From: an uncultured Bacilli bacterium
GTDB lineage: Bacteria; Bacillota_I; Bacilli_A; RF39; UBA660
Direction: 5' to 3'
Length of the DNA: 64,000 bases
Assembly: GCA_910588195.1 (NCBI GenBank)
Contig: CAJUPN010000004.1
Location: forward strand, 88,290 to 152,289
Shown here: piece by piece, positions 995-46,797 of the stretch
Numbering within the stretch: position 1 is the first letter of the stretch
How the letters are laid out: every line of letters begins with the position of its first letter
Position numbers and translations under genes: made by a program
Notes under the pieces: generated by a model
Told to the model about the DNA's origin: nothing
The model's database searches: none
What the model saw: only the letters and a program-made list of their open reading frames with translations

Positions 995-2770
995 TTAATT
1001 CATAACTCTTTTAAACATTCTTTCTAATTCATATTTAGTAAATGTAATTATCGTTGGTCTCCCATGGGGACAATTATAAGGATTATCACATAAAACTAAA
1101 TCGTTAAGCAATGCATCAGCTTGTTCAAGGGTAATTGCTTCATTTCCTTTAACACTCATCTTACAGGCCATAGTTGCTGCAATATGATCTTGAAATTTAA
1201 CACGATCAAATAAATGTTTTCCCTCAATAATAATATCAAATATTCTTCTTGTACTTTCCGTTTCTAAGCCAACTCTTAACCAAACAGGATGTTCTTTAAC
1301 TATAAAGGTATTTAAACCAAATTCTTCAAGTTTAAAACCTAGATTCTCTAAGACACTAATATTTTCTTTGATTTTTAAATACTCAGAAGAAGATAACTCA
1401 ATTGTGATAGGAATCAAAAGTGAAGTTGTATAGACCTTATCAGATGCAAGAGCATGTAAAACTTTTTCATAGTTTATTCTTTCCTGTGCCGCATGCTGAT
1501 CAATTAAATACATTCCATCATCATTTTGAGCAATTATATATGTTCCAAAAACAATACCTGCTGGATAAAACTCTAATTTTTTCACTATTTCATTTTCTTC
1601 TACAGAAACATCACTAGCTTCTTCTACCTCTGATTTCACAACATTAAAATTCCCATTAAAATCTAAAGTATCTTGAACAATTTCTTGATATGGTAGTTCT
1701 TCTTCATGAACTTCAGGCATCGATATTTCATTATAATATGTGTCAGGAACCTTTACTTCAACTTTAGGAATTAACAAAGTTTTCTTTAAAGAAGACATAA
1801 TATTTTCGGTAAGTGATGTTTTTAAAACATCAATTTTCGAAAACTTAATATCCTGTTTTGTAGGATGAATATTAACATCAATTAAAGTTGGATCTGTTTC
1901 AATTTTTAATACTGCCACAGGATACTTAATATCTGGTTTAAAAGTAAAATACCCATCATTAATTGCTTTATTAATTTCATTATTTTTAACACATCTACCA
2001 TTAACAATAGTTGTCATATGATTTCTATTACTCTTTAAAACTACTGGTTTACATATATAACCAAATACATCATAATCATCTGTAATAATATTAATCTCAA
2101 TCATATTAGAGCTAACTGAATAGCCATATATTTCATGAATAGTTTTTAGTAAATCTCCTGACCCACTTGTAAAAACAATTTTTTTATCATTGTTTGTAAG
2201 CAAAAATGAAATATCAGGATGTGAAAGAGCAAGTTTTTCAATAAATGAAGTAACATTGGCAAGTTCTGTAGAATCACTTTTTAAATACTTAAGTCTAGCA
2301 GGTGTATTATAAAATAAATCACTAACTTCCATAATAGTCCCTTGACGAGATGGAGCTGTTTCATCAAGAATCAATTCTCCACCATGGATTATTATATGTG
2401 TCCCTGGTCCACCTTGGCTTGTCTTTAGATCAACTTTAGAAACAGAAGCAATTGAGGGAATAGCTTCTCCTCTAAACCCTAAAGTATTAATAAAAAACAA
2501 ATCATCTTCTCTTGTTAATTTAGACGTAGCATGTCGCAAAAAACACATTGTAGCATCATCATGATCCATTCCAAGCCCGTCATCAGTCACTTTAATCACT
2601 TTAGTACCTGAGTCTACTAAATCGACATTTATACATTTACTTTTAGCATCAATCGAATTCTCAACTAATTCTTTAACAACTGATGAAATTCTTTCAACAA
2701 CTTCACCAGCTGCAATCTTATTAGCTAAGTTATCACTCATAACTTTAATATTACTCATTATATCCCCCAA
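995..2770 (-). CDS. mutL: DNA mismatch repair protein MutL
   Basis: 591 aa. N-terminal GHKL ATPase motifs (KIAAGEVVERISSVVKELVENSIDA, VTDDGLGM) and a C-terminal dimerisation region. Typical MutL length. Confidence 0.93.
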   Translation of the reverse strand: MGDIMSNIKVMSDNLANKIAAGEVVERISSVVKELVENSIDAKSKCINVDLVDSGTKVIKVTDDGLGMDHDDATMCFLRHATSKLTREDDLFFINTLGFRGEAIPSIASVSKVDLKTSQGGPGTHIIIHGGELILDETAPSRQGTIMEVSDLFYNTPARLKYLKSDSTELANVTSFIEKLALSHPDISFLLTNNDKKIVFTSGSGDLLKTIHEIYGYSVSSNMIEINIITDDYDVFGYICKPVVLKSNRNHMTTIVNGRCVKNNEINKAINDGYFTFKPDIKYPVAVLKIETDPTLIDVNIHPTKQDIKFSKIDVLKTSLTENIMSSLKKTLLIPKVEVKVPDTYYNEISMPEVHEEELPYQEIVQDTLDFNGNFNVVKSEVEEASDVSVEENEIVKKLEFYPAGIVFGTYIIAQNDDGMYLIDQHAAQERINYEKVLHALASDKVYTTSLLIPITIELSSSEYLKIKENISVLENLGFKLEEFGLNTFIVKEHPVWLRVGLETESTRRIFDIIIEGKHLFDRVKFQDHIAATMACKMSVKGNEAITLEQADALLNDLVLCDNPYNCPHGRPTIITFTKYELERMFKRVMN

Positions 2771-3737
2771 ATAAACTTGGTCTTACCTCAATAAAAGACG
2801 GATCTATATTGGTTGTAATATTTACCCTTTTCTTCACCGATATAAAACCAATACCATATATAACAACATCAACACAATCGCTTTCTAAAGATATTGTATT
2901 AACTAACCCTGGAGCAGCTTTAAAATATTTTTTTATCGCCTTTTTACTTTCGTGATTTGTATAAAAAGTAATAGGCGTTTCTGAATCAAACTTAAAAAAA
3001 TATTTATTATCTAAAATGCCTACAGTTTCACATTCTTTCATATTTATGGTATATGCAGTTATATTTTTCCCACTTACATCGTGATTTAAAGAATTTTTCA
3101 AAATAACCCCTGGTGAATCTATCAAGGTTAATTGTTCATTAATTTTAACTCTTATAAAATCAAGAGTTGTATTAGCTTTATTATTTACTGTAGTATGCGC
3201 AACTTTTGAACCACAAGTTGTAATCAAATCATTTATTAAAGTACTTTTCCCAGAATTTGATATTCCTAAAATATAAGCTTCTTTAATTGAATTATCTTTT
3301 AAATAATTTAGTATCCCCCTAGCCCCATGGTGTGAACTAAGAGACCCACCTTTTAGCTTTACAGTATCACTAATATCATAATGTTTTTTCAAAAATAAAC
3401 GAACACTTTCATTTTTTATATGTTTAGGAATTAATTCACACTTATTTACAACTAACATTTTCTCTTTTTTTATAGATTTAAATATTCTAATTACTTCATC
3501 ATTTATATTTAAAAAATCAACTAAAAATATAACAAAACGATTATCTTTATTAATTTTATTAATAATTTCTTTTGCTTCCTTAGGTGTATTAGTTTGTTTA
3601 ACTTCACCATAATGCATCATCCTAAAGCATCGCATACAATAATCTGAATTATTTATTTTATTTTCTGGTATATACCCTGGGTTATCTTTACAATTACTTT
3701 GTAATTTTATTCCGCATCCATAACAAATCTTATTCAT
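2751..3737 (-). CDS. yqeH: Ribosome biogenesis GTPase YqeH (circularly permuted GTPase with N-terminal zinc finger)
   Basis: N-terminal CxGCG...C..C zinc ribbon. G-motifs include GISNSGKSTLIN. Adjacent to yqeG as in the Bacillus yqeG-yqeH locus. Confidence 0.8.
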   Translation of the reverse strand: MNKICYGCGIKLQSNCKDNPGYIPENKINNSDYCMRCFRMMHYGEVKQTNTPKEAKEIINKINKDNRFVIFLVDFLNINDEVIRIFKSIKKEKMLVVNKCELIPKHIKNESVRLFLKKHYDISDTVKLKGGSLSSHHGARGILNYLKDNSIKEAYILGISNSGKSTLINDLITTCGSKVAHTTVNNKANTTLDFIRVKINEQLTLIDSPGVILKNSLNHDVSGKNITAYTINMKECETVGILDNKYFFKFDSETPITFYTNHESKKAIKKYFKAAPGLVNTISLESDCVDVVIYGIGFISVKKRVNITTNIDPSFIEVRPSLFGGYNE

Positions 3738-4254
3738 AATATCTTCCCCTTTTAAAATAATCTTTTTGTGTTAGTTTATTAATTACTATATTTTCTATTT
3801 TTCTATTTATTTTAGCTACCGCAAATTCATCAGTACTAATAGGATTAACAAGAATTGAAGTGAATTTCATTCTATTCGCTCCAAAAATATCAAAAAATAA
3901 TTGATCCCCAATAGCTGCCACTTCATGAGCAGAGAACTGAAATATACTAAGTACTTTCTTATACTTGCGTTTTAAAGGTTTAAAAGTTAAATAACTTGAA
4001 TCAACACATAAAAGTTCTTTAAAAGGAATTACATACTTTTTAAAACCATTACTCATAAGAATTATTTTAAAATCCATCTCTTTTAAATCTTCAAATAAAT
4101 CTTTAACTTTTCTTGATGGTGACACTGTAGTTTCCGACTCCAGTGTATTAGATATATCAAAAATCAAACACTTAATACCACTTTCCTTTAAAGACTTATA
4201 ATTTATATCATATATACTCTTAAAATATTTATCTGGAACTAAGTTTTCTAACAT
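3730..4254 (-). CDS. yqeG: HAD-superfamily phosphatase, YqeG family
   Basis: 174 aa. HAD motif I (LIFDISNTL) and a conserved GD motif. Immediately upstream of yqeH, giving the conserved gene pair. Confidence 0.75.
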   Translation of the reverse strand: MLENLVPDKYFKSIYDINYKSLKESGIKCLIFDISNTLESETTVSPSRKVKDLFEDLKEMDFKIILMSNGFKKYVIPFKELLCVDSSYLTFKPLKRKYKKVLSIFQFSAHEVAAIGDQLFFDIFGANRMKFTSILVNPISTDEFAVAKINRKIENIVINKLTQKDYFKRGRYYE

Positions 4255-6247: not shown

Positions 6248-7006
6248 ATGTTAAAAAAAATTAAGAAAAAATTAACAATAAGAAATTTGCTTATCTTTTT
6301 ACTTTTAATAATATTTCTTTTTGCCATAACAAAAATATCACTTTTCTTCTATGACCTTCATATGAATGGAATAAAAACAAGAGCTTTAATTGATGATGTC
6401 TATGCTTCTTTCATCAATAAAGAGACAAATGAAGAAATAATAAAGATTGATTTTCCTAAACTATTATCAATAAATCGTGATACTGTTGGTTGGATAAAAG
6501 CAAATAATGGAAAAGTAAATTATCCAATTGTTCAAACAACAACTAATACATATTATTTAAACAAATCTTTTGATAAGACGTATAATCAAGCGGGTTCTAT
6601 TTTTATGGACTACCGTAATAGATCATCATTTCAAGATCGAAATGTTGTCTTATTTGGACACTCTATGCTTGATAAAACAATGTTTGGTTCTCTAAATGAT
6701 GTTTGGAAAAAAGACTTTTTCAATACTAAAGAAAATGGAATAATAAAAATAATTGATGCTAATAACAATCCTAGCACTTATGAAATATTTAGTTATTATA
6801 CTATTGATAAAGAAGAATATTATATAAAAACTAGTTTTTTATCAGATTCTGAATTTATCGAATTTTTAAACATTATAAAAAAAAGAAGTTTAAAAGACTT
6901 CAATATAAACTTAACTGAAAAAGATAAAATATTAACTTTATCCACTTGTGCTGGTACAGGTGGTACAAATAAACGAAAAGTAATTCATGCTAGAAAAATA
7001 AACTAA
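6248..7006 (+). CDS. srtB: Class B sortase
   Basis: 252 aa with an N-terminal membrane anchor. Catalytic TLSTC motif (LTLSTCAGTGG). Conserved His region (FGHSM). Confidence 0.8.
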   Translation: MLKKIKKKLTIRNLLIFLLLIIFLFAITKISLFFYDLHMNGIKTRALIDDVYASFINKETNEEIIKIDFPKLLSINRDTVGWIKANNGKVNYPIVQTTTNTYYLNKSFDKTYNQAGSIFMDYRNRSSFQDRNVVLFGHSMLDKTMFGSLNDVWKKDFFNTKENGIIKIIDANNNPSTYEIFSYYTIDKEEYYIKTSFLSDSEFIEFLNIIKKRSLKDFNINLTEKDKILTLSTCAGTGGTNKRKVIHARKIN

Positions 7007-7074: not shown

Positions 7075-7399
7075 ATGTTATTTTTTATACATATTGTTAA
7101 TCTGCTTTCAATATTTATGGGATCTTATTCAATTAATGTCTTCCCAAATCCCTTATCAAAAGAAGAAGAAGCAGATCTTCTAAAAAAAATGCAAGATGGT
7201 GATAAACTAGCTCGTTCGAAACTTATTGAACACAATTTAAGACTTGTTGCTCACATTGTAAAAAAATTTGATTGTATTGAAAAAATGAATGATGATTTAA
7301 TAAGTATTGGTACAATCGGCTTAATCAAAGGAATAGATTCATTCAAAATAAATAAAAATAATAAACTTACAACCTATGTTGCCAGATGTATTGAAAATG
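7075..7399 (+). CDS. sigK: sigK 5' segment (spoIVCB-like): pro-sigma-K N-terminal half, interrupted by an intervening element
   Basis: AGGTGA RBS then ATG at 7075. Encodes a pro-sequence plus sigma region 2 (LIEHNLRLVAHIVKKF...LISIGTIGLIKGIDSF...TYVARCIEN), near-identical to B. subtilis SigK. The frame then reads through into unrelated sequence. Confidence 0.85.
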
Positions 7400-7614
7400 C
7401 AACATTCACCTGTTGGAAAGAATGCTTTTCATTTCTTTTATTAAAATATCTAAATCATTAGTATCTAATTCATAATTTTCAAGATATTTAGTTATTAATT
7501 CTAAATGTAAAAGAAGCAAATTATTTTGAAAATCAATATCATTTTTTGGCATTGATGTAATAACTTTCACACTATCACCTATAAAAATATATATTAAAAA
7601 AAAGAATTTTATAA

Positions 7615-9417
7615 CTATAAAACTCTTTTTTTCACTTTTGACTCTTCTTTATTATCTTCTTTTAAATCTTCGTCAGTTCTATCAACTTCTTGTGCTAGAT
7701 TATGGAATTTATTACCATTTTCAGCAATTTGTACCTTAAGCTCACCAGTTATACTATAATCGCTAGTCCAAGGAGCTTTAAATTCAACATAATCATTATT
7801 TCTAATTCCTCTATTTAAAACATCGTTAATAGCATTATAAATTGGTTCTTTCATTTCAAAATCATCACCATATTTAGAAATAACTCTTAAAACATCTTCC
7901 CAAACAACAAATTGACCTTCAGCAGATAAAACATCTATAACATTATCAGGGTATCTTGGATCTTCAAGTCTATTCGCTACAAGAGATGTAATACTTACAG
8001 CATCTTGATAAGAACCATTATACTCATGTTCAACAACATAATAAAGGGCTTTTAGTTCAAAATTAGTTAAAGTATATGTCGTATTATTAAAAGTTAAATG
8101 AAGTCCTCTAACAAGTTCTTCATTATCTTTACCCATAGAAATTTCTTCTGCCTTCATCTCTGTGTTCTCTTCTAATACCAAAGACCTATTTCCTTCTAAA
8201 ATACTTTGCGAATCAGCCATTAAGGCAACTGTTTTATTTTCAAAAGTCTGAACATTTACTGTAGCTAATGTTTCAGCTTCTAAATTATCATCACTTTTTA
8301 ATGTATCAACTTTTACTATTTCATAAGCATTTTCTGGAAAATTTTCACCAAAAGATTCATCTTCATATTCACTTGTTATAGAGTCTCCTATAATTGGTAA
8401 CTCATCACTAGATGACTTTCTTAATAAAAGTTTTCCTCCTTGTGCTACATTTAAAGATAATATATCAATATCACCTTGAGCTTTAAAAATTTTTAATTTC
8501 TCAACATCTGGTATACTTGTAATTGGCATACAAGCAATTGGAGAAACAAAATTACTTATTAAATTCTCCTGTGAAGAAACTGAAACAGCTACTACTCCTA
8601 AAGATAAAGACGCAATTGCTAAACTCTTCTTAAGAGCTAAGAAATCTTTATTTTCTACATTCTTTCCAAATTTAGAATATACCAAATTCTTAAATCTAGA
8701 AAACACACCTTTAGCTTTCAAATTAAATTTAGATAATCGATTTTCTTTTAACATATTTTTAGAAGCTTGACGATATCCTCTATAACACTTTATTAAAGTA
8801 TCAACATCCTTTTCATTAACGACATGATTTTTACTTAAAAATACTTCTTTTGGATTACAAAGTTCTTCACACATAATTAAAGAAGCTAATGTTGAATAAT
8901 ATGATATTAATTCTTCATTTGATAGATTTTTTAAATCTTCCTCGTTAATTTTATAACTAACTTCAACTTTCTCATTTAATACAGCTTTAATATATTCAAT
9001 TAACTTTTCTATTTCTCTACAAGAATTATAAAGCGATAAATACTTTTTATAATATTTTTCTGAGACACTTACACGATAATTTCCTTTAACAAAACTACGC
9101 TTTTTACCACTTTTTCTTTCCAAAAAAGACATATTTTCTTGATATAGTCGTTTTGTCTCATTTAAATAATCTACAATGTTTAATAAATCTTCATTTGAAT
9201 GAGCAATTTCTTCATCTATTGCAGTTGGATTATTAAGTTTTTCTTTCAGTTTTGCTATTGATTCATTAGTTGAATAAGATAACATTGAAAATAAATCACT
9301 TAAATTTTCATCTTGAGCTATCGCTATTTTTTCTTGTTGCTTAAGTATCAATTGTTCACTTCTTTTAGCAAGTATTTGTTGAATTTTTGTCTTTGTATTA
9401 TCTAACTCTTTAGTCAT
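7615..9417 (-). CDS. Membrane-anchored coiled-coil protein with a C-terminal SleB/CwlJ-type (Hydrolase_2) cell-wall hydrolase domain
   Basis: 600 aa. Central TM helix (LAIASLSLGVVAVSV). C-terminal ...YYVVEHEYNGSYQDAVSITSLVANRLEDPRYPDNVIDVLSAEGQFVVWED matches the cortex-lytic enzyme catalytic domain pattern. Confidence 0.6.
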   Translation of the reverse strand: MTKELDNTKTKIQQILAKRSEQLILKQQEKIAIAQDENLSDLFSMLSYSTNESIAKLKEKLNNPTAIDEEIAHSNEDLLNIVDYLNETKRLYQENMSFLERKSGKKRSFVKGNYRVSVSEKYYKKYLSLYNSCREIEKLIEYIKAVLNEKVEVSYKINEEDLKNLSNEELISYYSTLASLIMCEELCNPKEVFLSKNHVVNEKDVDTLIKCYRGYRQASKNMLKENRLSKFNLKAKGVFSRFKNLVYSKFGKNVENKDFLALKKSLAIASLSLGVVAVSVSSQENLISNFVSPIACMPITSIPDVEKLKIFKAQGDIDILSLNVAQGGKLLLRKSSSDELPIIGDSITSEYEDESFGENFPENAYEIVKVDTLKSDDNLEAETLATVNVQTFENKTVALMADSQSILEGNRSLVLEENTEMKAEEISMGKDNEELVRGLHLTFNNTTYTLTNFELKALYYVVEHEYNGSYQDAVSITSLVANRLEDPRYPDNVIDVLSAEGQFVVWEDVLRVISKYGDDFEMKEPIYNAINDVLNRGIRNNDYVEFKAPWTSDYSITGELKVQIAENGNKFHNLAQEVDRTDEDLKEDNKEESKVKKRVL

Positions 9418-9584
9418 TATTAAACACTCCCCTTCAATTTTTATTTCTGAGTATAAAATTACTCAGAACACACCTAATCAAAATACCATAAATTATAGTT
9501 TGTGTCAACCATTTTTGCGTCATTTTTCGGCACTTTTCCGCATATTTTCATTAGTTCCCTAGTATATAATAAAGAGGTGAAAAA

Positions 9585-11156
9585 GTGAACGATAAAAAGT
9601 ATGCTATATATTCTCGTAAATCGAAATATACAGGGAAAGGAGAAAGCACAACTAATCAAATAGAACTATGTCTAACAACCCTAAAAAACAAATTTCCAGA
9701 CATAAAAAAAGATGAAATATTAATCTATGAAGATGAAGGATTTTCAGGTTATAGCACCAATCGTCCTGCTTTTAAAAAGCTTTTAAAAGACATTGAAAAT
9801 AATAAAATAAAAATTCTCCTTTTTTATAAACTTGATCGAATAAGCAGAAACGTTAATGACTTCGCAAGATTAATGTCTCTCCTAGAAGCTCACGATGTTT
9901 CATTTCTATCAGCTACAGAAAATATTGAAACACTAACACCTAGTGGCAAAGCACTAACTTATATGATATCTGTTTTTGCTGAACTAGAAAGAAATACCAT
10001 AGCAGAAAGAATAAAAGATAATATGCTTGAACTTGCTAAATCAGGTGTTTGGCTTGGTGGAAATACTCCCACTGGTTATAGCTCAGTTGAAGAAATAAAA
10101 TTAATTAATAATAAAAAGAAAAAAACTTATTGTCTAAAAGAAAATGAGGATATCGAAAAAGTAGAACTAATCTTTAAAAACTATCTAAGACTTAAATCTT
10201 TAACAAAATTAGAGACATTCCTTTTAAATAAAAATATATTATCTATTAATTTAAAACCATACACTCGTTTTTCTTTAAAAAATATATTAACTAACCCTGT
10301 TTATGTAAAAAGTGATAAAGATATCTACAATTACTATGAGAATAAAGGAATAAATTTATATGGGGGTTCTTGGAATGGAATTAATGGCTTAATGGTTTAT
10401 AATAAAACAACTAATTTAAATCATAAAATATTAAAAAGAAAGAAAACAGAAGAATGGATTATAAGTGTCGGTAAACATAAAGGAATAATTGATGGGAAGA
10501 CATTTATAAATGTTGCAAATTTAATTGAAGCTAATAACAACATGCGATATCGTAAAACAAATTCTTTAAGAAGTCCCCTGTCAGGACTCGTAAAATGTGC
10601 TAATTGTAAATCTAACATGCGACCTAAAATAAGAAAGAATAAAGACAATGAAATCATCACTGACTATTTATGTGAATTAAAAGAAAAAAGCAAGAAGAAT
10701 TTATGTGATGCCAAAAACATAAATGGTTCAATCATTGAAGATACAATAATAAGTAATATAATGAACTTTGAAATAAATATGACTATTTTATTCAACAAAT
10801 TAAAAAAGACTCTCAAAACTGATAAAAATAGTGAAATAAAAGAAATTTCCTATAGAATAAAGAAAAATAATGAAACAATAAAAAATTTAATTGATAAAAT
10901 AAAATATATTGATATATCAATAATAGATGACATAAATAAAGAAATAAAAGAATTAAAAGAAGAAAATGCTATGTTAAACTCTAGATTAAATAAATTAAAT
11001 GCTAATTCTATAGATTTAAAAGACCTAGCCAATAAAACTATAAAGAATTATAAAAATATTAACAATTTAGATAATAAAACAAAGAAAAAATACTTACATT
11101 TATTAATAAAAGAAATCATAGCTTCAAATAATAAACTTATTATTAATTATAAATAA
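9585..11156 (+). CDS. Large serine recombinase (SpoIVCA-like) predicted to excise the sigK intervening element
   Basis: 523 aa. Resolvase catalytic domain (YSRKS...LDRISRN), recombinase domain, a Cys zinc ribbon (CANCKSN...C...C) and a C-terminal coiled coil. Sits inside the sigK-splitting element and ends 24 bp before the 3' sigK core. Confidence 0.9.
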   Translation: MNDKKYAIYSRKSKYTGKGESTTNQIELCLTTLKNKFPDIKKDEILIYEDEGFSGYSTNRPAFKKLLKDIENNKIKILLFYKLDRISRNVNDFARLMSLLEAHDVSFLSATENIETLTPSGKALTYMISVFAELERNTIAERIKDNMLELAKSGVWLGGNTPTGYSSVEEIKLINNKKKKTYCLKENEDIEKVELIFKNYLRLKSLTKLETFLLNKNILSINLKPYTRFSLKNILTNPVYVKSDKDIYNYYENKGINLYGGSWNGINGLMVYNKTTNLNHKILKRKKTEEWIISVGKHKGIIDGKTFINVANLIEANNNMRYRKTNSLRSPLSGLVKCANCKSNMRPKIRKNKDNEIITDYLCELKEKSKKNLCDAKNINGSIIEDTIISNIMNFEINMTILFNKLKKTLKTDKNSEIKEISYRIKKNNETIKNLIDKIKYIDISIIDDINKEIKELKEENAMLNSRLNKLNANSIDLKDLANKTIKNYKNINNLDNKTKKKYLHLLIKEIIASNNKLIINYK

Positions 11157-11179
11157 ACTTTCCAACAAGTTAGTATAGC

Positions 11180-11552
11180 AAATGAAATATTGATGTACTT
11201 TAGAAGTAATAAGAAAAACAACAATAATGTTTCTTTAAATGATTCAATTGGTTATGATAAAGATGGCAATGAAATAAATCTTATTGATGTCATCAAATCC
11301 AATAATACTGAATTAACAGAATTTCTTCACAATAAAGATAATTTAGACAAATTAAATAAATATTTAAGTGTTCTAAACGAAAGAGAAAAAGAAATAATTA
11401 TAAAAAGATACGGTCTTTTTGATAATGATGAATTTACTCAAAAAGAAATATCAGAATATTTAAATATTTCAAGATCCTATGTTTCAAGAATTGAAAAAAG
11501 AGCTATAACTAAGCTCTTCCGAGAATTTAAACGTGACGGTGGAGAATTTTAA
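11180..11552 (+). CDS. sigK: sigK 3' segment (spoIIIC-like): regions 3-4 of sigma-K
   Basis: Encodes ...ILMYFRSNKK...VSLNDSIGYDKDGNEINLIDVIKS...ISRSYVSRIEKRAITKLFREF, which matches the B. subtilis SigK C-terminal half. The frame is open back to the AAATG core. Confidence 0.85.
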
Positions 11553-11788
11553 TCATCCAAAGGAGCAAAAAATTCTCTTATATCACATTTTAATACTTTA
11601 GCAAATCTCCATAAAGTTCCTATAGAAAAAGTTTGAGTATATTTACTACTTTCAATATTCATTATAAATCCAACTGAATATGTAGATTCCTCTACAAGTT
11701 TGTCTTGTGTAAAACCTTTACTCTTTCTAATTCTTTTAAGGTTTTGGCCAATTAAATAATAAACATATATCTCATCTTCTTTATTCAA
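11549..11788 (-). CDS. XRE-family helix-turn-helix transcriptional regulator
   Basis: 79 aa. Cro/C1-type HTH (LKRIRKSKGFTQDKLVEES...). Confidence 0.55.
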   Translation of the reverse strand: MNKEDEIYVYYLIGQNLKRIRKSKGFTQDKLVEESTYSVGFIMNIESSKYTQTFSIGTLWRFAKVLKCDIREFFAPLDD

Positions 11789-11936: not shown

Positions 11937-12365
11937 TTAAGACTTAATAACTTCATACTCAACAGTTTTAACTTTTGACAAATCAGCATCTGTTAAAGCC
12001 TCAATATGCTTTTTTTCGCCACTTTTTAAAGTAGAACCAACATACCCAAGCAATTTAACTATTTCATTATTTTGATCATCTTTAAAAATAATATTAATAT
12101 ACGAAATATTTATATCATCTTTTGCATTTATTTCTGCTTCATACTTCATTAAACTATCTTCTTCTTTAATATTTATTGATGAAATAATAACATTATCAAT
12201 TTCTACATTCTTTAGTTCATAGCCATAAAAAACATTTAAAGTATTTGTAGAAAATGTTACTTTAAAAAGTATTGTTGACAAAGAGACTAATACAAAAGCA
12301 AATACTCCTATACCAATAGCTTTTTGTTTAAAATTTAATTCTTTAATTCTATTTAGTAAATTCAT
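11937..12365 (-). CDS. Small membrane-anchored protein, co-oriented with and abutting the giant surface protein gene
   Basis: 142 aa. N-terminal TM helix followed by a predicted beta-rich domain. Start lies 3 bp after the upstream gene's stop. Confidence 0.4.
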   Translation of the reverse strand: MNLLNRIKELNFKQKAIGIGVFAFVLVSLSTILFKVTFSTNTLNVFYGYELKNVEIDNVIISSINIKEEDSLMKYEAEINAKDDINISYINIIFKDDQNNEIVKLLGYVGSTLKSGEKKHIEALTDADLSKVKTVEYEVIKS

Positions 12366-12367
12366 AG

Positions 12368-15300
12368 TTAATCTACCTCCATTGAAGTTATTTCTTCTTT
12401 TTTCTTTATAATAATTTGTTTACTTTCAGATCCACAAACTAATTTATATGAACCAGTCTCTAAATCCTTTATATTTTTATAATATCTATCATCTATTAAG
12501 CATTCAGTCGGTATTAAATAGTCATCACCTTGGTAAAATTCTAAAATACTAGACTCTTTTTCTGAAATAATTTTAGTAACTGTTAAACTTGCTACTGATA
12601 ATATATTATCTGAAGATCTAGTTCTAGCAATTATAGTTAAATTTTTGTCTATTTTAATAGGTTCTTTATAAAGTATCCAAGTTTGTCCTAAATCTAAACT
12701 ATATTCATTAATAAATCCTGATGGATAATCAATGGTTATCTCTTTAGTTGAAGATAATTCAAAAGAATCCATATGGAACTTTGGTGCTTGAACAGTGTTT
12801 ACATCAATAAGTTCACTGTAACCCATACTGGTTGGTTGAAGTGCAATTTGAGTAACTGTGACTGTTCCATTTCCAGCTGAACAATCACCATAAACACAAG
12901 CATTCTCATATTCAGATCCACCTTTTACACTTATAACACCAAGTTGATCTATTCCAGTATTTTGGTTAGTAAATATATTAATACTTCCTCCACCAGAACC
13001 TCCACCTCCTGATGTTCCATATCCACCTCTTGCTCCATTAGCTGTTAGCTTTCCATTGTTTTTGTATTCATTTGCATATAAAACTAGAAGTCCTCCCGTT
13101 CCATTACTTCCATATCTTATCTTATCTTGACCAGGTGTTCCTCCTCCAGGATTTCCGGCTCCTCCACCCCATCCTTGATATCCTCCGCCACCTTGGCCTC
13201 CAATATCTGATGCTGGTGGATTTGCCTTGTATGAACCTCCTGATCCTCCAGAATATGATGTTCCTTTTCCTCCTTGACTGGTATTTAGACTTGCTGTTCC
13301 TCCAGCTCCGCCTCCTCCAGTCTGTCGTCCAATTCCATCCATTCCTTTTGTTTTTGATGTTGTTTCTGATGAACCTCCTTCAGCTCCTAATGCTGGTACA
13401 TATTCATATGTTCCATCTGCATTCTTCCACAAGTATACATCTTGTCCTTCAGCTTTGGCTCCATGGGAATTATCTATTGTTCCATTATTCTCTAACTTCC
13501 CAGTTACATACATTGTAAATCCTTTTGGTCCTCCATATAATTCATCATAATATGGTCTTACTGTTACTCCTTCTTCTATTGTTACATTTCCCTTGACCTT
13601 TACCACTACCATGTTTCGTGCATTATCATTCTTTGTTGCTACATCTCCTGCATCTCCAAATATTTGATCACTACTCCATCTTTGGTCTCCTTCTATTACA
13701 TACATATGCACTGGGTATTCTTCATTATTTACTTTGAAGAACCAATACCCACTTCTTATATCTTCATTAATAATTGATAAAATACTATCTCCTGTTTTAG
13801 TTACAGAATTTTTGTATGCTTCTTTGTCCTGTTCAATTATCTCTTTTAAATCATAATAAGTTCCGTTTCGAACCTCTCCAATATTTATTGTTCCATCTCC
13901 TGCGGAACAATCACCATATGGGCACATATTATCATACTCTGGACCACCAATAGTTTTTGAAATACCTAGAATTTCATTATACCTAGTATTAGTTATAACA
14001 CCAAGTTGATCTATTCCAGTATTTTGGTTAGTAAATATATTAATACTTCCTCCACCAGAACCTCCACCTCCTGATGTTCCATATCCACCTCTTGCTCCAT
14101 TAGCTGTTAGCTTTCCATTGTTTTTGTATTCATTTGCATATAAAACTAGAAGTCCTCCCGTTCCATTACTTCCATATCTTATCTTATCTTGACCAGGTGT
14201 TCCTCCTCCAGGATTTCCGGCTCCTCCACCCCATCCTTGATATCCTCCGCCACCTTGGCCTCCAATATCTGATGCTGGTGGATTTGCCTTGTATGAACCT
14301 CCTGATCCTCCAGAATATGATGTTCCTTTTCCTCCTTGACTGGTATTTAGACTTGCTGTTCCTCCAGCTCCGCCTCCTCCAGTCTGTCGTCCAATTCCAT
14401 CCATTCCTTTTGTTTTTGATGTTGTTTCTGATGAACCTCCTTCAGCTCCTAATGCTGGTACATATTCATATGTTCCATCTGCATTCTTCCACAAGTATAC
14501 ATCTTGTCCTTCAGCTTTGGCTCCATGGGAATTATCTATTGTTCCATTATTCTCTAACTTCCCAGTTACATACATTGTAAATCCTTTTGGTCCTCCATAT
14601 AATTCATCATAATATGGTCTTACTGTTACTCCTTCTTCTATTGTTACATTTCCCTTGACCTTTACCACTACCATGTTTCGTGCATTATCATTCTTTGTTG
14701 CTACATCTCCTGCATCTCCAAATATTTGATCACTACTCCATCTTTGATCTCCTTCTATTACATACATATGCACTGGGTAAATAACGCTGGTGCCCAACAC
14801 TTCAAAATCATAATAACCTGATTTTAAATCTTTTGTTTCTATTATGTCTAATATACTATTACCTTTTACTGTTATATTTGTTACTTTAATATCCTTACTT
14901 ACCTGTGCAGTTAGCCCAGCACCTGTTGTTATTTCACAAGTCAAAGTATATTCTCCTACTGGTAAACTACTTGAATTTGTATACTCTACATCACTATTAG
15001 GAACTTTGCAGACCCTATTTGATCCACTTATTCCATCAGTATAACTAGTTGGTATTACATATTCTAGATCTTTAGAAAAAATACTAGGTAAACCATCTAA
15101 ACTAATAGTTGGAATTGTTTTATCAATTTTTGAAACCGTAAACGAAGCAGCAACCTTTATGTTATCACCGTCAACAACTCTTGCAACAACAATTGTATTA
15201 TTTTCAGTTATCTTTAATGGTTGTTCATATAATTCCCAAGACTCGCCTAAATCTAAACTATATTGATAACTATAGCCATTATAAACATCTCTTGGATAAC

Positions 15301-18300
15301 TAATAGTTAATTCTTTTTCCGTTGCCCATCCTTCATTATCTAATATATATGAAATATCTCCGATATCAGTTGTAGTAACACTTAACTGATAAGCATCTGA
15401 TATGTTGCCAGCTTTATCGGTTACTTTTATATAAACTTGATATTCTTTATTATTTTTTAATTTATTAAAAGTATATACATTATTTTTAGAAGTTATATAT
15501 TCTTCCCCATCTAAAGAATACATATAAGTATCTACTTTACTACTTTGATCTTCTGCTAAAACTTCTATAGTAAAATTACTCGACCCTTTTTCTAAAATAT
15601 TTACATCTATTATTTCTGGTTTTATCACATCAATATTAGTAATTCTTTTACTAGCTATTTCACTTTGAATTTCTACATCATTAATAGATTTAGCATATAT
15701 CGTAGCATCTTCTTTAGAAATCTTAATTGGATTTTTATAATCTAGCCAATCAGTTTCTTCTCCATCACTGTAAATAATTTTATAAAGTTTTTCTACACTT
15801 ACCTTATCATAATTAATTGCAACAGTAACTTCTTTTGTCCATTCCTCTGTTGATAAAATAAATGTTGGTGTATTAGGTTTTGCTAAATCCCATCTCATAA
15901 ATATATTTTCAGATAATTCTGATAAAGGCACATCTAAAACATAATAATCATCTTTTATAATTATTTCTTTGCCATTTTCATCTTTTATTTTTACTCCATC
16001 AGATCCAATAACTTTATCTTTGTATTCTGGTCTAATTAAGACAATCCCATGGGGGTTATATTTTTTCCATTCACCATCTTTTTTCCATTTATACTCACGA
16101 TCACTTGGATTAGACATAGTCGGATAATTTAGTTTTATTAAATAATACATTCCATTATCTAAAATCGTTAAATTATCTTTTGGTATTATATTATCTACTA
16201 ATATCTCACTTTCTCCATAATGTCCTAACGAATCTTCATTATAGGCACTTATTCTTGTATTATTAGTAATTAACTCAATTGGACCAAAATAATCAAGCCA
16301 CTCACCATCATCAAGTTTATATTTTTTTATACTTGCAGTATTAGCATATTCAATTTCAACTCTAACCCATGGGGATGGTGTTGTTGGATTTATTCTAATT
16401 AAAGGATTAGAGATACCAGTTGTTAAATAATTAACTTGCTTACTAGTTTCACCTAAACCTTTTGTATTTAAAGCATAAGCATAAACGGTTGTATTCTCAT
16501 TTATTTCAAATGGTCCATTATATTCTCTTAAGTCTCCATTCCCAATTCTATAGTATCTTCCTGTTGCTCTTTCATCATATAAAATACTAACCTCTAACTT
16601 ATCAATTAGACCTTGAACTTCATTTTCTTCTGGCGATAAAGTAATTGCTACATCTAATTTTTCTAAAGGAATTGGAGCAATTGAAGTTGTAATATTTAAT
16701 TTTTCAATTGTTATCCCATTTTTATTAGTACCCTTTGCATAAATACTTTTACTTTGATTTATTTGGATTGGTCGTTCATATCTAAAATACTCTATTCCAT
16801 TAAAAGAATATTCTAAAGTATCATAGTCACTTCCACTTATAGTAACTATTACAGAATCAATATCTTCATTCAAATAAATACTTGGACTAGCATCTATTTT
16901 TACATAAGGTTTATTGGGTTGTTTAATATTTTGAACATAATAATAAGTTACTTCTGATTTCTTATCATTCTTATTTATATAGTAAGATCTTATAATTGAG
17001 TTTTTTAAAACTTCAAAGGTATTAACATATTCCTGATAAGATCCACCATCTACACTGTAGTAAATATTTTTTGCTTCTTCCTTTGTTTTAATATCTACTG
17101 TTACCTTCTCAGTTAGAGTAGTTGGCGAAACAGATATTACTGGTCCTTCTAATCTATCAGATAAAGATACTGCTTCTATATATTTTACATCATAAGCATA
17201 TTTTCCTTTATATTCTGCTTTAGCATATATGAATGTGTTAGCACTAACTTCAAACGAATTTGTATACAAAGTATAATTTTTATTGTCTAAACTATAATAT
17301 ATTTTTGAATTAGCTTCATTACTTACTATACTTATAGTCGCTTTTTGCCCTTTTAAAAGTCGATTATGAGATGAATTAATATTTACATGCAAGTAATTTT
17401 CATCTGGATTATCTCCTCCTTCTGGATTGCCTTCACCACTTTTAAAAATTGTCTTTTGTGATCTACCAACAGCCTTTCCTGTTCTTTTTACTCCATTATC
17501 TAAATCAATTGTTCTCTCACTTTCAGCATAAGCATATACAGTTGAGTTAGCACTCACTACAAATGAACCGGTATAATCAAGCCATGCAGAATCATCAACT
17601 TTATACATTCTAACTATAGCATCATCTTCATAATCAATGCTTACATTAGTTTTTTCATTTAAATATTCTTTATCTGGATTAATATCTATCCTAACACTAC
17701 CAAAATTAAGTGAACTTTCACCCTTTTCACTTATGTAAAGAGCATCTTCACCAACTAATGTTTTTTGCATTATAACATTTCCTTCAGCATCATAAACATT
17801 TTCTTCTTTAGTTGCCCTAGCTTCAATTAAAGTATCAGCACCAACACTAAATTCTTTTTCGTACTGAATCCAATTTCCACCATTTATACGATATTCCTTA
17901 GTTTTAGCATTTTTATCATAAGTTATTTTTACATTAGTTATTTCTTCACCACTTAAAGTCATCTTGTCAGCTGATATATCAACTAAGACTTTGCCATTAG
18001 GAACATCTATTACTTTTTCTCCATCAAGATCATAACGTATATAAATATTACCTATATCACTAACCTTAACTAAAATTGGTCCAGTATAACTTTCCCAATC
18101 ATCATCTTCGCCACGGATTTCACCTTCTCTATGTAATCTCCACTCACGATTAGTTGAACCAACTGGATAATAAATATTTAATCTTATCCATCCATCCCAT
18201 TCTTCATCTTCACCATTTGGAACAATAACTTTTATATCCTTACTTACCTCAGCATAAGTTCCTGTATTAGATATAGCCTTACAACTAACCGTATATTCTC

Positions 18301-19567
18301 CTACAGCAAAATCCTCAGTTGATGAAACATTTTTACTCCAATCATGATCTAAAGCACATGAATAATTACCACCTGATGGACCAAATTCAACATGACTTGG
18401 AAGTTGATATTTTTCACCATATTCAAAAACTGCTGGTAAATCTATTAAATCAATTTTTGGTATTTCTAATTCTGGTTTAATAGGTTTTGTTGTATTAGTT
18501 GGTTTAACTGTTATTGTCTGCTCAGTAGAACTAACTGGCTTTGTTGTTGTAGACTTATCACCAGAGGAAGTTGTTGTCGTTTTAATAGGTTTTGTTGTAT
18601 TATTCTCTTCATCTAAATTTCCTGTTGGCTTAGTTTTATCTGGATTTGAATCTGGATAAACAGTCGTCCCATTGTTATAATTCGGATTATCTATCTCACT
18701 CTTATTAGTTGTATTTTCCGTATTTGAATTATCATTATTATCTTCAGAATTTGATACCCCATTATTAAAATTAGAAGTTCTTTCTGTAAATGTAACTTCA
18801 TAACTATTTAAAGCATTATCAAAAACCTTTATTGTTATCGTATATTCTGTATTTTCTTCTAAATTCTTTATAACAAAATTATTCTTTACTTCAACATACT
18901 CTTTATTGCCTATTTTATAATAATAATTTTTTATTCCCGAATCTTTGTCCCTTGCTTTAACATTTATATTAAAAGAATTAGCTGTAACACTTTTAGTAAT
19001 TGAATCAATAATTGGTGAAATATTATCAATAAGTACTTCTTCTTTGTTCGAAATAAATGAATATTTTCCATTTTTATATTTACCCTTAAAGAAAACATTC
19101 CATTTGCCTGTTTCCGCTATTTCTATACTCTTTTCTTGAGTTTCTTTCCAATCACATTTCTTACTAGATTTATTCTCAGTTACACAGTACATATAACTTT
19201 CTAACTCACTTACATCCACATCTTTTTTTACATATACTATATTACTCTTTACCCATCCATCTTCTTTACTTTCAATCAATGGACGATTATTTGTTATTAT
19301 TGATGATATACCAATATTTATAAACATCAAAAGAATCAACACTATAAAAAACAAAAGGAAAGGAAATAACCATAATTTAGAAACATAAACAGTTACTTCA
19401 TCACTGTTTTTTATCTCGCTTCCCTCTTCTGGTTCAGTTCTAATAACTCTTCCTCTTCTAATAAATAAACTAAATTCTTTTTCTTCTTTATAGTTTATCT
19501 TCTCTTTATCTAAAATCTCTTTTGCATCTTCAAATTTTTCTTTTTTTAAAACAGGTACTATTTTCAT
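12368..19567 (-). CDS. Giant (2399 aa) membrane-anchored surface protein with N-terminal PASTA-like domain, TM helix, FN3-like and chitobiase/hexosaminidase C-terminal-like repeats, and duplicated Gly-rich beta-helix-like modules
   Basis: Single uninterrupted frame with an AGGAG RBS. One TM helix at about residues 65-90. Many ...IYYSxDG...Y-type repeat domains. Two glycine-rich modules (GGGGAGGTASLNTSQGGKGTSYSGGSGG...). Confidence 0.8.
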   Translation of the reverse strand: MKIVPVLKKEKFEDAKEILDKEKINYKEEKEFSLFIRRGRVIRTEPEEGSEIKNSDEVTVYVSKLWLFPFLLFFIVLILLMFINIGISSIITNNRPLIESKEDGWVKSNIVYVKKDVDVSELESYMYCVTENKSSKKCDWKETQEKSIEIAETGKWNVFFKGKYKNGKYSFISNKEEVLIDNISPIIDSITKSVTANSFNINVKARDKDSGIKNYYYKIGNKEYVEVKNNFVIKNLEENTEYTITIKVFDNALNSYEVTFTERTSNFNNGVSNSEDNNDNSNTENTTNKSEIDNPNYNNGTTVYPDSNPDKTKPTGNLDEENNTTKPIKTTTTSSGDKSTTTKPVSSTEQTITVKPTNTTKPIKPELEIPKIDLIDLPAVFEYGEKYQLPSHVEFGPSGGNYSCALDHDWSKNVSSTEDFAVGEYTVSCKAISNTGTYAEVSKDIKVIVPNGEDEEWDGWIRLNIYYPVGSTNREWRLHREGEIRGEDDDWESYTGPILVKVSDIGNIYIRYDLDGEKVIDVPNGKVLVDISADKMTLSGEEITNVKITYDKNAKTKEYRINGGNWIQYEKEFSVGADTLIEARATKEENVYDAEGNVIMQKTLVGEDALYISEKGESSLNFGSVRIDINPDKEYLNEKTNVSIDYEDDAIVRMYKVDDSAWLDYTGSFVVSANSTVYAYAESERTIDLDNGVKRTGKAVGRSQKTIFKSGEGNPEGGDNPDENYLHVNINSSHNRLLKGQKATISIVSNEANSKIYYSLDNKNYTLYTNSFEVSANTFIYAKAEYKGKYAYDVKYIEAVSLSDRLEGPVISVSPTTLTEKVTVDIKTKEEAKNIYYSVDGGSYQEYVNTFEVLKNSIIRSYYINKNDKKSEVTYYYVQNIKQPNKPYVKIDASPSIYLNEDIDSVIVTISGSDYDTLEYSFNGIEYFRYERPIQINQSKSIYAKGTNKNGITIEKLNITTSIAPIPLEKLDVAITLSPEENEVQGLIDKLEVSILYDERATGRYYRIGNGDLREYNGPFEINENTTVYAYALNTKGLGETSKQVNYLTTGISNPLIRINPTTPSPWVRVEIEYANTASIKKYKLDDGEWLDYFGPIELITNNTRISAYNEDSLGHYGESEILVDNIIPKDNLTILDNGMYYLIKLNYPTMSNPSDREYKWKKDGEWKKYNPHGIVLIRPEYKDKVIGSDGVKIKDENGKEIIIKDDYYVLDVPLSELSENIFMRWDLAKPNTPTFILSTEEWTKEVTVAINYDKVSVEKLYKIIYSDGEETDWLDYKNPIKISKEDATIYAKSINDVEIQSEIASKRITNIDVIKPEIIDVNILEKGSSNFTIEVLAEDQSSKVDTYMYSLDGEEYITSKNNVYTFNKLKNNKEYQVYIKVTDKAGNISDAYQLSVTTTDIGDISYILDNEGWATEKELTISYPRDVYNGYSYQYSLDLGESWELYEQPLKITENNTIVVARVVDGDNIKVAASFTVSKIDKTIPTISLDGLPSIFSKDLEYVIPTSYTDGISGSNRVCKVPNSDVEYTNSSSLPVGEYTLTCEITTGAGLTAQVSKDIKVTNITVKGNSILDIIETKDLKSGYYDFEVLGTSVIYPVHMYVIEGDQRWSSDQIFGDAGDVATKNDNARNMVVVKVKGNVTIEEGVTVRPYYDELYGGPKGFTMYVTGKLENNGTIDNSHGAKAEGQDVYLWKNADGTYEYVPALGAEGGSSETTSKTKGMDGIGRQTGGGGAGGTASLNTSQGGKGTSYSGGSGGSYKANPPASDIGGQGGGGYQGWGGGAGNPGGGTPGQDKIRYGSNGTGGLLVLYANEYKNNGKLTANGARGGYGTSGGGGSGGGSINIFTNQNTGIDQLGVITNTRYNEILGISKTIGGPEYDNMCPYGDCSAGDGTINIGEVRNGTYYDLKEIIEQDKEAYKNSVTKTGDSILSIINEDIRSGYWFFKVNNEEYPVHMYVIEGDQRWSSDQIFGDAGDVATKNDNARNMVVVKVKGNVTIEEGVTVRPYYDELYGGPKGFTMYVTGKLENNGTIDNSHGAKAEGQDVYLWKNADGTYEYVPALGAEGGSSETTSKTKGMDGIGRQTGGGGAGGTASLNTSQGGKGTSYSGGSGGSYKANPPASDIGGQGGGGYQGWGGGAGNPGGGTPGQDKIRYGSNGTGGLLVLYANEYKNNGKLTANGARGGYGTSGGGGSGGGSINIFTNQNTGIDQLGVISVKGGSEYENACVYGDCSAGNGTVTVTQIALQPTSMGYSELIDVNTVQAPKFHMDSFELSSTKEITIDYPSGFINEYSLDLGQTWILYKEPIKIDKNLTIIARTRSSDNILSVASLTVTKIISEKESSILEFYQGDDYLIPTECLIDDRYYKNIKDLETGSYKLVCGSESKQIIIKKKEEITSMEVD
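12931..13717. repeat. 787-bp direct repeat, copy 1, inside the giant surface protein gene (encodes the C-proximal Gly-rich module)
   Basis: Essentially identical to 13993..14779 (offset 1062 bp, one mismatch seen). Produces identical antisense ORFs at 13072..13518 and 14134..14580. Confidence 0.9.
13993..14779. repeat. 787-bp direct repeat, copy 2, inside the giant surface protein gene
   Basis: Same as above. Separated from copy 1 by about 275 bp of unique sequence. Confidence 0.9.
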
Positions 19568-45636: not shown

Positions 45637-45713
45637 GGGGAATTAGCTCAGCTGGCTAGAGCACCACGCTTGCACCGTGGGGGTCAGGGGTTCGAATCCC
45701 CTATTCTCCACCA
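45637..45713 (+). tRNA. tRNA-Ala (anticodon UGC), encoded CCA
   Basis: GGGGAATTAGCTCAGCTGGCTAGAGC... cloverleaf with anticodon loop CTTGCAC (TGC), T-arm GGTTCGAATCC, and acceptor stem plus ACCA. The 3' 23 nt are part of the prophage att repeat. Confidence 0.9.
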
Positions 45714-45873: not shown

Positions 45874-46797
45874 TTAAATTTTTTCCAGAATGTTTAATCT
45901 TAAAGAATTTAGAGTACTAAGTACTCTTTTTTCTTGTTCTAAATTACAATGAACATAGATGTCTAATGTAGTACTAATTTTAGAGTGCCCTAAACGTTTA
46001 GACACATCATTTATAGGTATTCCCTCGTTAACTAATAAAGTCGCGTGAGAATGTCTAAATTGATGTAATGTTATAGTTCTAATATTAGCTTTAGAACAAG
46101 CTTTCAATTTAACTCTATTAATAGTGGTCGGAGCTAAAGGTTTAATTCCACCAAATATATAATAATCAAAACATTCATCACCATATAAATTAATATAGTA
46201 TTCTTTTAAATTACATAATTCATTAACTAAATAGTCATCAATAACAATTTCACGATAACTTGAAATATTTTTAGGAGTATCTAATTCACGACCACCTTTA
46301 GTAGTCAAATTGTGATTAATATAAATATAATTACCAATTAAATCACTAAATTTTAAAGCCATAGCTTCACCGGGTCTAGCACCTGTAAAAAATAAAAATG
46401 TAAAAAACAATTTATACATATAATCATCAACACCACTAATAAATAAATTGAATTCATCTAATGTATAATAATCATATTTCTTTAATTCGTATTTTCTTTT
46501 AAAATTACCTATTTCTTTAAGATAATTACAAGATAAATCTAAATAATCACAACAAAATTGTATAAATTGATTAAAACAAACATACAAATTATTATTAAAG
46601 CTATTAGAATAATTCATACTAATAATAGTATTTTTCCATTTAAGATAATCTAATTTAGTTAACTCAAATATATCAAAACCTTTAAAATAAGGCATAACAT
46701 GTAAATTAAAATTTTTCCAGAATGTTTCTAGTGTTTGTTTTTTTAGGTGACTAGTACCTAATTCTAAATATTTTTTGTATGCATTTTCAAAAAGCAT
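45874..46797 (-). CDS. Tyrosine-type site-specific integrase
   Basis: 307 aa. Catalytic residues in context: ...RPGEAMALKFSDL (Arg), HQFRHSHATLL (HxxR), GHSKISTTLDIYVH (Tyr). Adjacent to tRNA and attL. Confidence 0.9.
   Translation of the reverse strand: MLFENAYKKYLELGTSHLKKQTLETFWKNFNLHVMPYFKGFDIFELTKLDYLKWKNTIISMNYSNSFNNNLYVCFNQFIQFCCDYLDLSCNYLKEIGNFKRKYELKKYDYYTLDEFNLFISGVDDYMYKLFFTFLFFTGARPGEAMALKFSDLIGNYIYINHNLTTKGGRELDTPKNISSYREIVIDDYLVNELCNLKEYYINLYGDECFDYYIFGGIKPLAPTTINRVKLKACSKANIRTITLHQFRHSHATLLVNEGIPINDVSKRLGHSKISTTLDIYVHCNLEQEKRVLSTLNSLRLNILEKI

Follow-up and report, generated by a model that had tools for sequence, protein, structure and literature searches.

Whether the sigK gene of an uncultured mouse-gut Bacilli bacterium is interrupted by a developmentally excised element, by an ordinary mobile element or by an inactivating insertion is the question raised by a 64,000-nt stretch of its genome (assembly GCA_910588195.1, contig CAJUPN010000004.1, positions 88,290 to 152,289), hereafter called the window. 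In this AT-rich sequence (G+C content of 26.7%), sigK lies in two parts separated by a 3,785-bp insert, for which we propose, with a probability of about 0.8, that it is a miniature sigK-intervening (skin) element. The first-pass annotation had described it as skin-like, with a recombinase of the SpoIVCA type at the right end, a description that both the family searches and the comparative data support. The gene parts and the left copy of the repeated core are located as follows:

7075-7399, forward strand: sigK 5' part, running from ATG at 7075 through codon 108 to the first base of codon 109.
11184-11552, forward strand: sigK 3' part, starting with GAA at 11184, comprising 122 codons and a stop codon and read in another frame than the 5' part.
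7395-7399, unstranded: attL core AAATG, the same in three sister elements (L017, L018 and L019, see below); the empty site of contig L025 breaks exactly there.

The 5' part ends with TYVARCIEN and reads ...NKLTTYVARCIEN before passing into unrelated sequence, and in the split state its open reading frame (ORF) extends to position 7461, i.e., 20 codons into the element. The 3' part resumes at 11184 with EILMYFRSNKKNNNNVSLNDSIGYDKDGNEINLIDV... and continues as EILMYFRSNKK. The 5-bp core AAATG is present once at each breakpoint (7395-7399 and 11180-11184), as had been noticed before, and removal of one core copy together with everything between the two (3,785 bp) puts the sigK halves in frame. 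Joining position 7399 to 11185 yields an in-frame 230-aa protein that is split between codons N108 and E109, the predicted attB junction (rejoined sigK) reading ...GCCAGATGTATTGAAAATGAAATATTGATGTACTTTAGAAGTAATAAGAAAAAC. The joined protein matches the NCBIfam SigK model NF004471 in one unbroken stretch, residues 4-226 aligning to model positions 9-231 of 235, with a score of 304.7 bits (cut-off 252) versus 222.6 bits on the SigE model; on the TIGR02846 equivalog it scores 295.1 and stays below the cut-off of 298.65. The earlier statement that the junction can be rebuilt exactly is thus confirmed, and the reconstructed ORF is in frame and sigma-K-like. Since AAATG is common in the window (327 occurrences on both strands), the pentamer itself is not evidence, whereas the exact in-frame full-length join is; the core takes its significance from this join, from the dyad symmetry of the rebuilt attP and from the precise empty site in a sister species. 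The N-terminus of the rebuilt SigK (MLFFIHIVNLLSIFMGS followed by YSINVFPNPL) is pro-sequence-like and resembles the pro-sequence and cleavage context of Bacillus subtilis SigK. If this resemblance is correct, control of the factor would be two-tiered, as in B. subtilis.

Relatives of the locus were found by scanning species-representative genomes with the rejoined SigK. About 12 of them have an intact sigK, the closest being an Erysipelotrichales metagenome-assembled genome (MAG; L005, 88% identity), and the intact 230-aa proteins of related MAGs, which are 72–88% identical, are named SigK by NCBI. In three other species, sigK is interrupted at this codon too, the elements measuring 3,841 bp (L017), 3,911 bp (L018) and 3,817 bp (L019) and agreeing with that of the window in gene order and AAATG core. 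At the amino acid level, the sigK 5' part of the window is 97% identical to that of L017 and 92% identical to the corresponding part of the intact L005 gene.

A natural empty site was found in the species of L017, where the proposed survey of relatives for an intact sigK at this position gave a clear answer. The SigK cluster protein P0152 (230 aa) has exactly the sequence predicted for the rejoined halves of L017, and the contigs that encode it include L025 (116 kb, GCA_948482795.1) and L030. In the 10.3-kb left flank, both contigs share 99.8% identity with L017; the 3,841-bp element is missing from them, and identity coming from either side ends exactly at the shared AAATG. The empty site therefore confirms the element boundaries to the base, and precise loss of the element leaves a normal sigK. 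It should be noted that the L017 species is polymorphic for the mini-skin: among the contigs compared with L017 (L025, L026, L027, L028, L029 and L030), intact sigK is found on long ones (L025, L026 and L027, up to 116 kb), while two intact-sigK contigs of only 1.0–1.3 kb could be assemblies of minor variants. Intact sigK occurs on both alleles of a flanking single-nucleotide polymorphism (SNP; locus position 9665), L027 and L028 sharing the L017 allele and L025 having the other, a pattern at a single SNP site that hints at more than one heritable loss in this species.

The ratio of nonsynonymous to synonymous substitution rates (dN/dS) between species is 0.03–0.05 for the sigK 5' half, 0.05–0.14 for the 3' half and 0.14–0.26 for the recombinase. 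The values for the sigK halves between the four split species are the same as those obtained against the intact L005 gene, dS being saturated (about 1 or more) in these comparisons. The two halves and the recombinase have thus been kept functional through a long divergence while the gene was split, which is hard to explain without regular reassembly of the gene. Because of the strong purifying selection on both halves, the split gene is not a decayed pseudogene, and a second intact sigK elsewhere in the genome is an unlikely explanation of the pattern. In public records of the locus (MCI8793962.1 to MCI8793966.1; MCX4248156.1), the split gene has gone unrecognised, its halves being annotated in MAGs as ‘hypothetical protein’, ‘sigma-70 family sigma factor’ or ‘flagellar biosynthesis protein FliA’; they should be annotated as parts of a real gene rather than as pseudogenes, ‘FliA’ or ‘hypothetical’ proteins.

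The right part of the element is occupied by its recombinase gene, and the attachment sites extend from the two cores into the element:

9585-11156, forward strand: large serine recombinase, 523 aa, GTG start, same orientation as sigK.
7400-7420, unstranded: element-side arm of attL, ending in TGTTGGAAAG (7411-7420), the inverted partner of CTTTCCAACA.
11157-11184, unstranded: attR, in which the arm CTTTCCAACA (11158-11167) is separated by 12 nt from the right AAATG core (11180-11184).

Resolvase, Recombinase and Zn_ribbon_recom domains were recognized in this protein, whose N-terminal YSRKS motif holds the putative nucleophile Ser13 and which matches the PHROG 95 integrase (6e-95) and the catalytic domain of the TP901-1 integrase. 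The domains and the orientation agree with the initial description of a SpoIVCA-like recombinase co-oriented with sigK near the 3' core, but the stop codon ends 23 bp before the right core and not 24 bp as first given. Its relatives at 44–63% identity are all located directly upstream of a sigK 3' half. Besides the sister elements L017, L018 and L019 (55–63%), they include the recombinases of a Bacilli MAG (L036, 49%) and of two Oscillospiraceae (L038 and L039, 44%), each directly followed by a sigK 3' half that starts at the same EIL residues. The L036 element is larger than 10 kb and carries genes for a holin and an M23-peptidase lysin, as well as other phage-like genes; that of L038 measures about 7.7 kb. 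Since these recombinases are also found next to sigK, the mini-skin is, as judged by sequence comparison, a reduced form within a larger group of phage-derived elements that target sigK. The phage-like genes of L036 suggest phage ancestry for the element of the window, which was probably whittled down from a prophage; among its three ORFs there are no phage structural, lysis or replication genes. It can be added that the sigK element of the Oscillospiraceae (L038, L039) has two large serine recombinase genes (2176-3962 and 10001-11770), the first of which abuts the end of the sigK 5' half.

The best-matching phage integrases, from Terrisporobacter TPELB_ph1 and the Clostridium phages HM T and CP51, are 41–45% identical to the recombinase over 65–75% of its length. 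Below about 43% recombinase identity, an association with sigK was not seen among 80 IMG/VR contigs and these clostridial phages, a soft negative given that many of the loci end right after the integrase; the available flanks of the 80 contigs, whose integrases are 32–43% identical, contain no sigK pieces. A link of TPELB_ph1 to sigK was considered and rejected, as the region 3' of its integrase has a different inverted repeat and no sigK-like core.

When the element ends are joined as on an excised circle, the reconstructed attP is an imperfect palindrome, CTTTCCAACA-N12-AAATG-N11-TGTTGGAAAG, with the predicted circle-junction sequence ...AGTTAGTATAGCAAATGCAACATTCACCTGTTGG. The dyad is centred in the window on the AA at 7396-7397, the likely crossover dinucleotide, and a dyad with a central dinucleotide is, by its sequence, what would be expected of the attP of a serine integrase. 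The inner symmetry is clearest in L018 (TAGCA-AA-TGCTA, with the core's AA at its centre). Arms of this kind are found in the three sister elements (L017, L018 and L019), and the larger phage-like element of L036 possesses a near-identical attR arm, CTTTCCAACAGGTGTAGATAGCAAATG. A short identical core with inverted-repeat half-sites is thus kept in the four species and in L036.

The remaining part of the element holds two further genes and a control region:

7406-7570, reverse strand: orf54, likely start ATG at 7552, 48 aa, isoelectric point (pI) 4.6; candidate recombination directionality factor (RDF).
7615-9417, reverse strand: orf600, 600 aa, cargo gene for a predicted membrane protein with a SleB-like hydrolase domain.
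9418-9584, unstranded: divergent control region between orf600 (reverse) and the recombinase gene (forward), with inferred promoter assignments.

We propose that the element's own recombinase would bind attL and attR, most likely acting with the orf54 product as its RDF, and that strand exchange at the central AA of the shared AAATG would release a 3.8-kb circle carrying the dyad-symmetric attP and leave an intact sigK encoding pro-sigma-K. If the analogy with B. subtilis and Clostridioides difficile holds, excision would take place in the terminally differentiated mother cell, and the spore, as the germ line, would keep the element; one of two genes, that of the recombinase or orf54, would be under sporulation control. 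In this scheme we infer that excision is timed to the mother cell, what orf54 does, at which dinucleotide the strands cross over and of what type the promoters are.

In the control region, the reverse strand has TTGACA-17-(TG)TATTTT at 9508-9480, a sigma-A-like promoter candidate for orf600 that is conserved as TTGACA-17-TGnTATTTT. The forward strand reads GCATATT...TATATAATAAAGAGGTG before the recombinase gene, and GyATATTT-N-TATATAATAAAGAGGTG is invariant in the four elements, so both promoter blocks are invariant or nearly so in otherwise divergent sequences. By its sequence, the motif upstream of the recombinase would fit a sigma-E/K-type promoter (ATA-18-tATATAAT; consensus from PMC3789822) and a weak sigma-A promoter equally well.

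A number of observations weigh against programmed excision of a mini-skin. The recombinase promoter is as compatible with sigma-A as with sigma-E, and a sigma-70 promoter scan was not enriched over shuffled sequences (27 found vs. 36 expected), so that the statements on promoters rest on cross-species conservation only. The rejoined SigK of the window's species, in three start variants, was absent from a collection of 15 billion proteins in an exact look-up, and an exact scan of metagenome and viral contig collections gave no match to the attP circle junction. The orf54 product matches no family in Pfam, NCBIfam or PHROGs and has no detectable homology to known RDFs, and its dN/dS of 0.44–1.1, for a short sequence with saturated dS, is no proof of constraint. 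Finally, the inspection covered the 64-kb window, and a second sigK could lie elsewhere in the genome.

Among the competing explanations, the one that survives best is an ordinary mobile element or reversible switch that is excised and inserted again in germ-line or vegetative cells, giving rise to sporulation-proficient and sporulation-deficient subpopulations or to horizontal spread instead of mother-cell-only excision. It can draw on the polymorphism of the L017 species, in which intact sigK on both SNP alleles points to heritable loss, possibly more than once, and on the perfect TATAAT -10 element of the recombinase gene, a parallel to the constitutively expressed CD1231 of C. difficile. 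Nevertheless, we consider it unlikely. Rare germ-line loss is known for classical skin elements too and is compatible with a mini-skin; the element has no transfer, replication or packaging genes; and no empty site was found for the window's species among >1000 contigs. Its split sigK 5' and 3' products are each found on at least 1000 contigs (the 3' product as called has 119 aa), and the split state is its only assembled state. The exact recombinase occurs on contigs in 479 blocks of a public assembly collection, always in the same context, with carriers including the mouse-gut MAGs ‘Bacilli bacterium’ GCA_948500325.1, GCA_949448425.1 and GCA_022795355.1. A scan of metagenome contigs for the attB junction retrieved only the empty site of the L017 species (L030, the same as L025) and none for the window's species, while a degenerate attP-arm pattern had no match in viral contigs. 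Recent horizontal spread is also opposed by the recombinase divergence, which tracks that of the hosts: recombinase and host-gene identities rank alike, pairing the window with L017 and L018 with L019, with L005, L031, L033 and L034 outside this group. Because of this mirroring, the data fit vertical inheritance of the element since before the four species diverged.

According to a second alternative, which we regard as less probable again, excision depends on the recombinase alone or with a host factor, and orf54 is unrelated cargo, such as a small regulator or an antitoxin-like peptide. The missing family match and the weak measurable constraint of orf54 suit this proposal, as does the position of the B. 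subtilis RDF, Skr, whose gene overlaps the 5' end of the recombinase gene and does not lie at the far end of the element. On the other hand, no Skr-like ORF overlaps or precedes the recombinase start here, the only ORFs there being unconserved ones of 20–28 aa, and large serine recombinases generally need an RDF for the attL x attR reaction. Furthermore, orf54 is the only other small ORF kept in position in four elements that have otherwise diverged to 42–63% identity: a positional homologue of 48–54 aa with a pI of 4.1–5.2 is present at the left end of all four, and its acidity is shared by CD1234 and SprB. In the window, the orf54 stop codon lies 6 bp from the left core, and the gene has its own AGGTG ribosome-binding site, with a CATA/TATA-type -10 element after a hairpin and a T-run. 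Because of this conservation at the left end of all four related elements, the orf54 product is more likely an RDF than cargo, and it would then be a candidate for a new RDF family. The early claim that the element carries only two passenger genes consequently stands for orf600 but probably not for orf54, the more likely excision cofactor. As a side observation, the read-through of the sigK 5' ORF overlaps the 3' end of orf54 in antisense by 56 nt (7400-7461 vs. 7406-7570), and transcription from the sigK promoter would run antisense to orf54; the overlap is only 7 nt in L017 and is probably not a conserved feature.

The idea that the insertion simply inactivated sigK, leaving pseudogene remnants in a lineage that does not sporulate or has another sigK, can point to the lack of an observed rejoined sigK for the window's species but is highly improbable, as both halves are intact ORFs with dN/dS values (0.03–0.14 across four species) indistinguishable from those of the intact L005 gene, and as the element has retained its att sites and recombinase along with the frame relation between the halves.

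The predicted product of orf600 begins with a helical domain, followed by a hydrophobic segment at about residues 262-285 and then a disordered linker, and ends in a Hydrolase_2 (SleB/CwlJ-type) domain, the latter matching Pfam PF07486 with an E-value of 1.7e-6 and 29 bits (cut-off 27); H464-E465 are invariant in the homologue alignment. No PDB sequence match was found, and among PHROGs there was no convincing match (E 0.019, function listed as unknown). In an AlphaFold2 (AF2) model, the N-terminal domain is confidently helical, and the mean predicted local distance difference test score (pLDDT) is 53.8 overall and about 57–77 per ten-residue block (mostly 65–77) over residues 450-540. The top Foldseek matches in PDB are the SleB catalytic domains 4f55 and 4fet, with a weak E-value of 0.13; as the model is poor overall, this result is used only as support for the Pfam match. 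The homologues in the L017, L018 and L019 elements are 42–46% identical, and dN/dS between species is 0.36–0.63.

Homologues of orf600 are also present outside an intact sigK in sister genomes. In L005, a 556-aa homologue (8153-9823) is located directly upstream of sigK and divergently transcribed, and the orf600 promoter block (window 9465-9511) is likewise found upstream of it (9860-9910); the homologue of L031 and L032 has 524 aa and is separated from the downstream sigK by about 2.7 kb (2779-4353 in L031). The window itself has a single orf600 copy. This distribution indicates that the gene moved between chromosome and element, and the comparison suggests two routes: uptake by the element of a gene that lay beside sigK in the chromosome, or loss of an element with this gene staying behind. 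The available phylogeny does not polarise the direction of movement, and of several duplication and re-integration scenarios considered, none is simple. More tentatively, and with doubts of our own, we raise the possibility that the mini-skin is an anciently domesticated, vertically inherited developmental switch that predates the split of the four species, has exchanged content with the host chromosome and employs orf54 as a new RDF family. Its sole cargo would then be a membrane-anchored SleB-like hydrolase under a sigma-A-type promoter, orthologous to the gene upstream of intact sigK in the sister species. If true, the element would document the gain, or the release, of a neighbouring host gene by a skin.

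Skin elements are known from B. subtilis (48 kb), C. difficile (14.6 kb), C. tetani, a C. perfringens phage, B. cereus biovar anthracis and others, and a survey lists 15 firmicutes with skins of 2.6–48 kb and 2–67 ORFs (Galperin et al., bioRxiv 10.1101/2022.02.25.481979, Table S7). The small ones are those of Sulfobacillus acidophilus (2.6 kb), Alkaliphilus metalliredigens (3.5 kb), Thermacetogenium phaeum (3.6 kb) and Pelotomaculum thermopropionicum (4.2 kb, 2 ORFs), and spoIVCA is always at the skin edge, usually just upstream of the sigK 3' half (bioRxiv 10.1101/2022.02.25.481979). In each respect tested, the element of the window agrees with this picture. The element of the window is, as initially stated, far smaller than the B. 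subtilis and C. difficile skins, but with skins of 2.6–4.2 kb already catalogued its size is not novel. Those mini-skins, likened to it here by description, also split sigK, belong to the same size class and carry the recombinase gene at the border with the 3' half. They come from Clostridia, with none from Erysipelotrichia, whereas the present element, unlike what is listed for them, is conserved in four species, polymorphic in one of these, and carries a SleB-like gene and an acidic ORF.

Large serine recombinases carry out the integrative reaction (attP x attB) unaided, and an RDF is required for attL x attR recombination (PMC5025042; PMC6957869). In C. difficile, CD1231 is constitutive, and mother-cell specificity is conferred by the 72-aa acidic RDF CD1234, which is under sigma-E/SpoIIID control and was itself reported without database relatives (PMC5025042). 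Similar to the element of the window, the 14.6-kb skin of C. difficile 630 has a recombinase co-oriented with sigK directly upstream of the 3' half, a small acidic protein as cofactor (proposed as such here) and inverted-repeat half-sites around a short core; the pro-sequence-like N-terminus of SigK is a difference. The orf54 proteins (48–54 aa) match no protein family, and we draw no link to the 72-aa CD1234. The 48-kb skin of B. subtilis 168 resembles the present element in splitting a pro-sigma-K gene by a large serine recombinase element with a 5-bp core and inverted repeats. Judging from the ORF lengths of Table S7, the split presumably falls in the same CIEN/EIL region. In contrast to the mini-skin, the B. 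subtilis element is a 67-ORF prophage remnant with the recombinase gene on the side of the 5' half and in the opposite orientation, and the gene of its RDF, Skr, overlaps the 5' end of spoIVCA, an arrangement with no counterpart in the window; both spoIVCA and skr are sigma-E dependent (PMC6957869). The gin element in gerE of Bacillus cereus ATCC 10987 (GirC/GirX) differs in its target gene, its 9-bp core and its three recombinase genes.

The novelty is modest and consists of the Erysipelotrichales host, in which this is apparently the first skin, of a mini-skin conserved in four species with a natural empty site, of a candidate RDF family and of a SleB-like cargo. It adds an abundant, uncultured lineage of mouse-gut Erysipelotrichales to the known hosts of sigK-intervening elements and leaves the concept of skin elements unchanged. 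Having three genes and a pair of 50-bp att sites, and being available in four diverged versions alongside a natural empty site, it offers a compact natural system convenient for finding the minimal set for developmental excision and a new RDF.

In the window, the sigK parts are flanked by a sortase gene (6248-7006) and a small convergent helix-turn-helix (HTH) gene (11549-11788). A search for further sporulation genes among ten other ORFs of the window returned housekeeping matches only. In L017, L025, L005, L031 and L033, the HTH gene is directly followed by a conserved block composed of orf~200, VanZ, orf~202, LtaS and a peptidyl-prolyl isomerase (PPIase) gene, from which it is separated in the window (11937-19567) by orf142 and a 2,399-aa gene. 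The latter (12368-19567, reverse strand) encodes a surface-type protein with PASTA and Fn3-like matches and Gly-rich blocks, and it contains a perfectly identical 754-bp direct duplication (12931-13684 and 13993-14746, spaced 1,062 bp apart) that is either very recent or a product of assembly collapse or expansion. Further downstream, a tRNA-Ala(TGC) gene (45637-45713) is followed after 160 bp, on the opposite strand, by a tyrosine recombinase gene (45874-46797; XerA/integron-integrase-like, E 8e-21), a pair that may mark another integrated element at a tRNA site.

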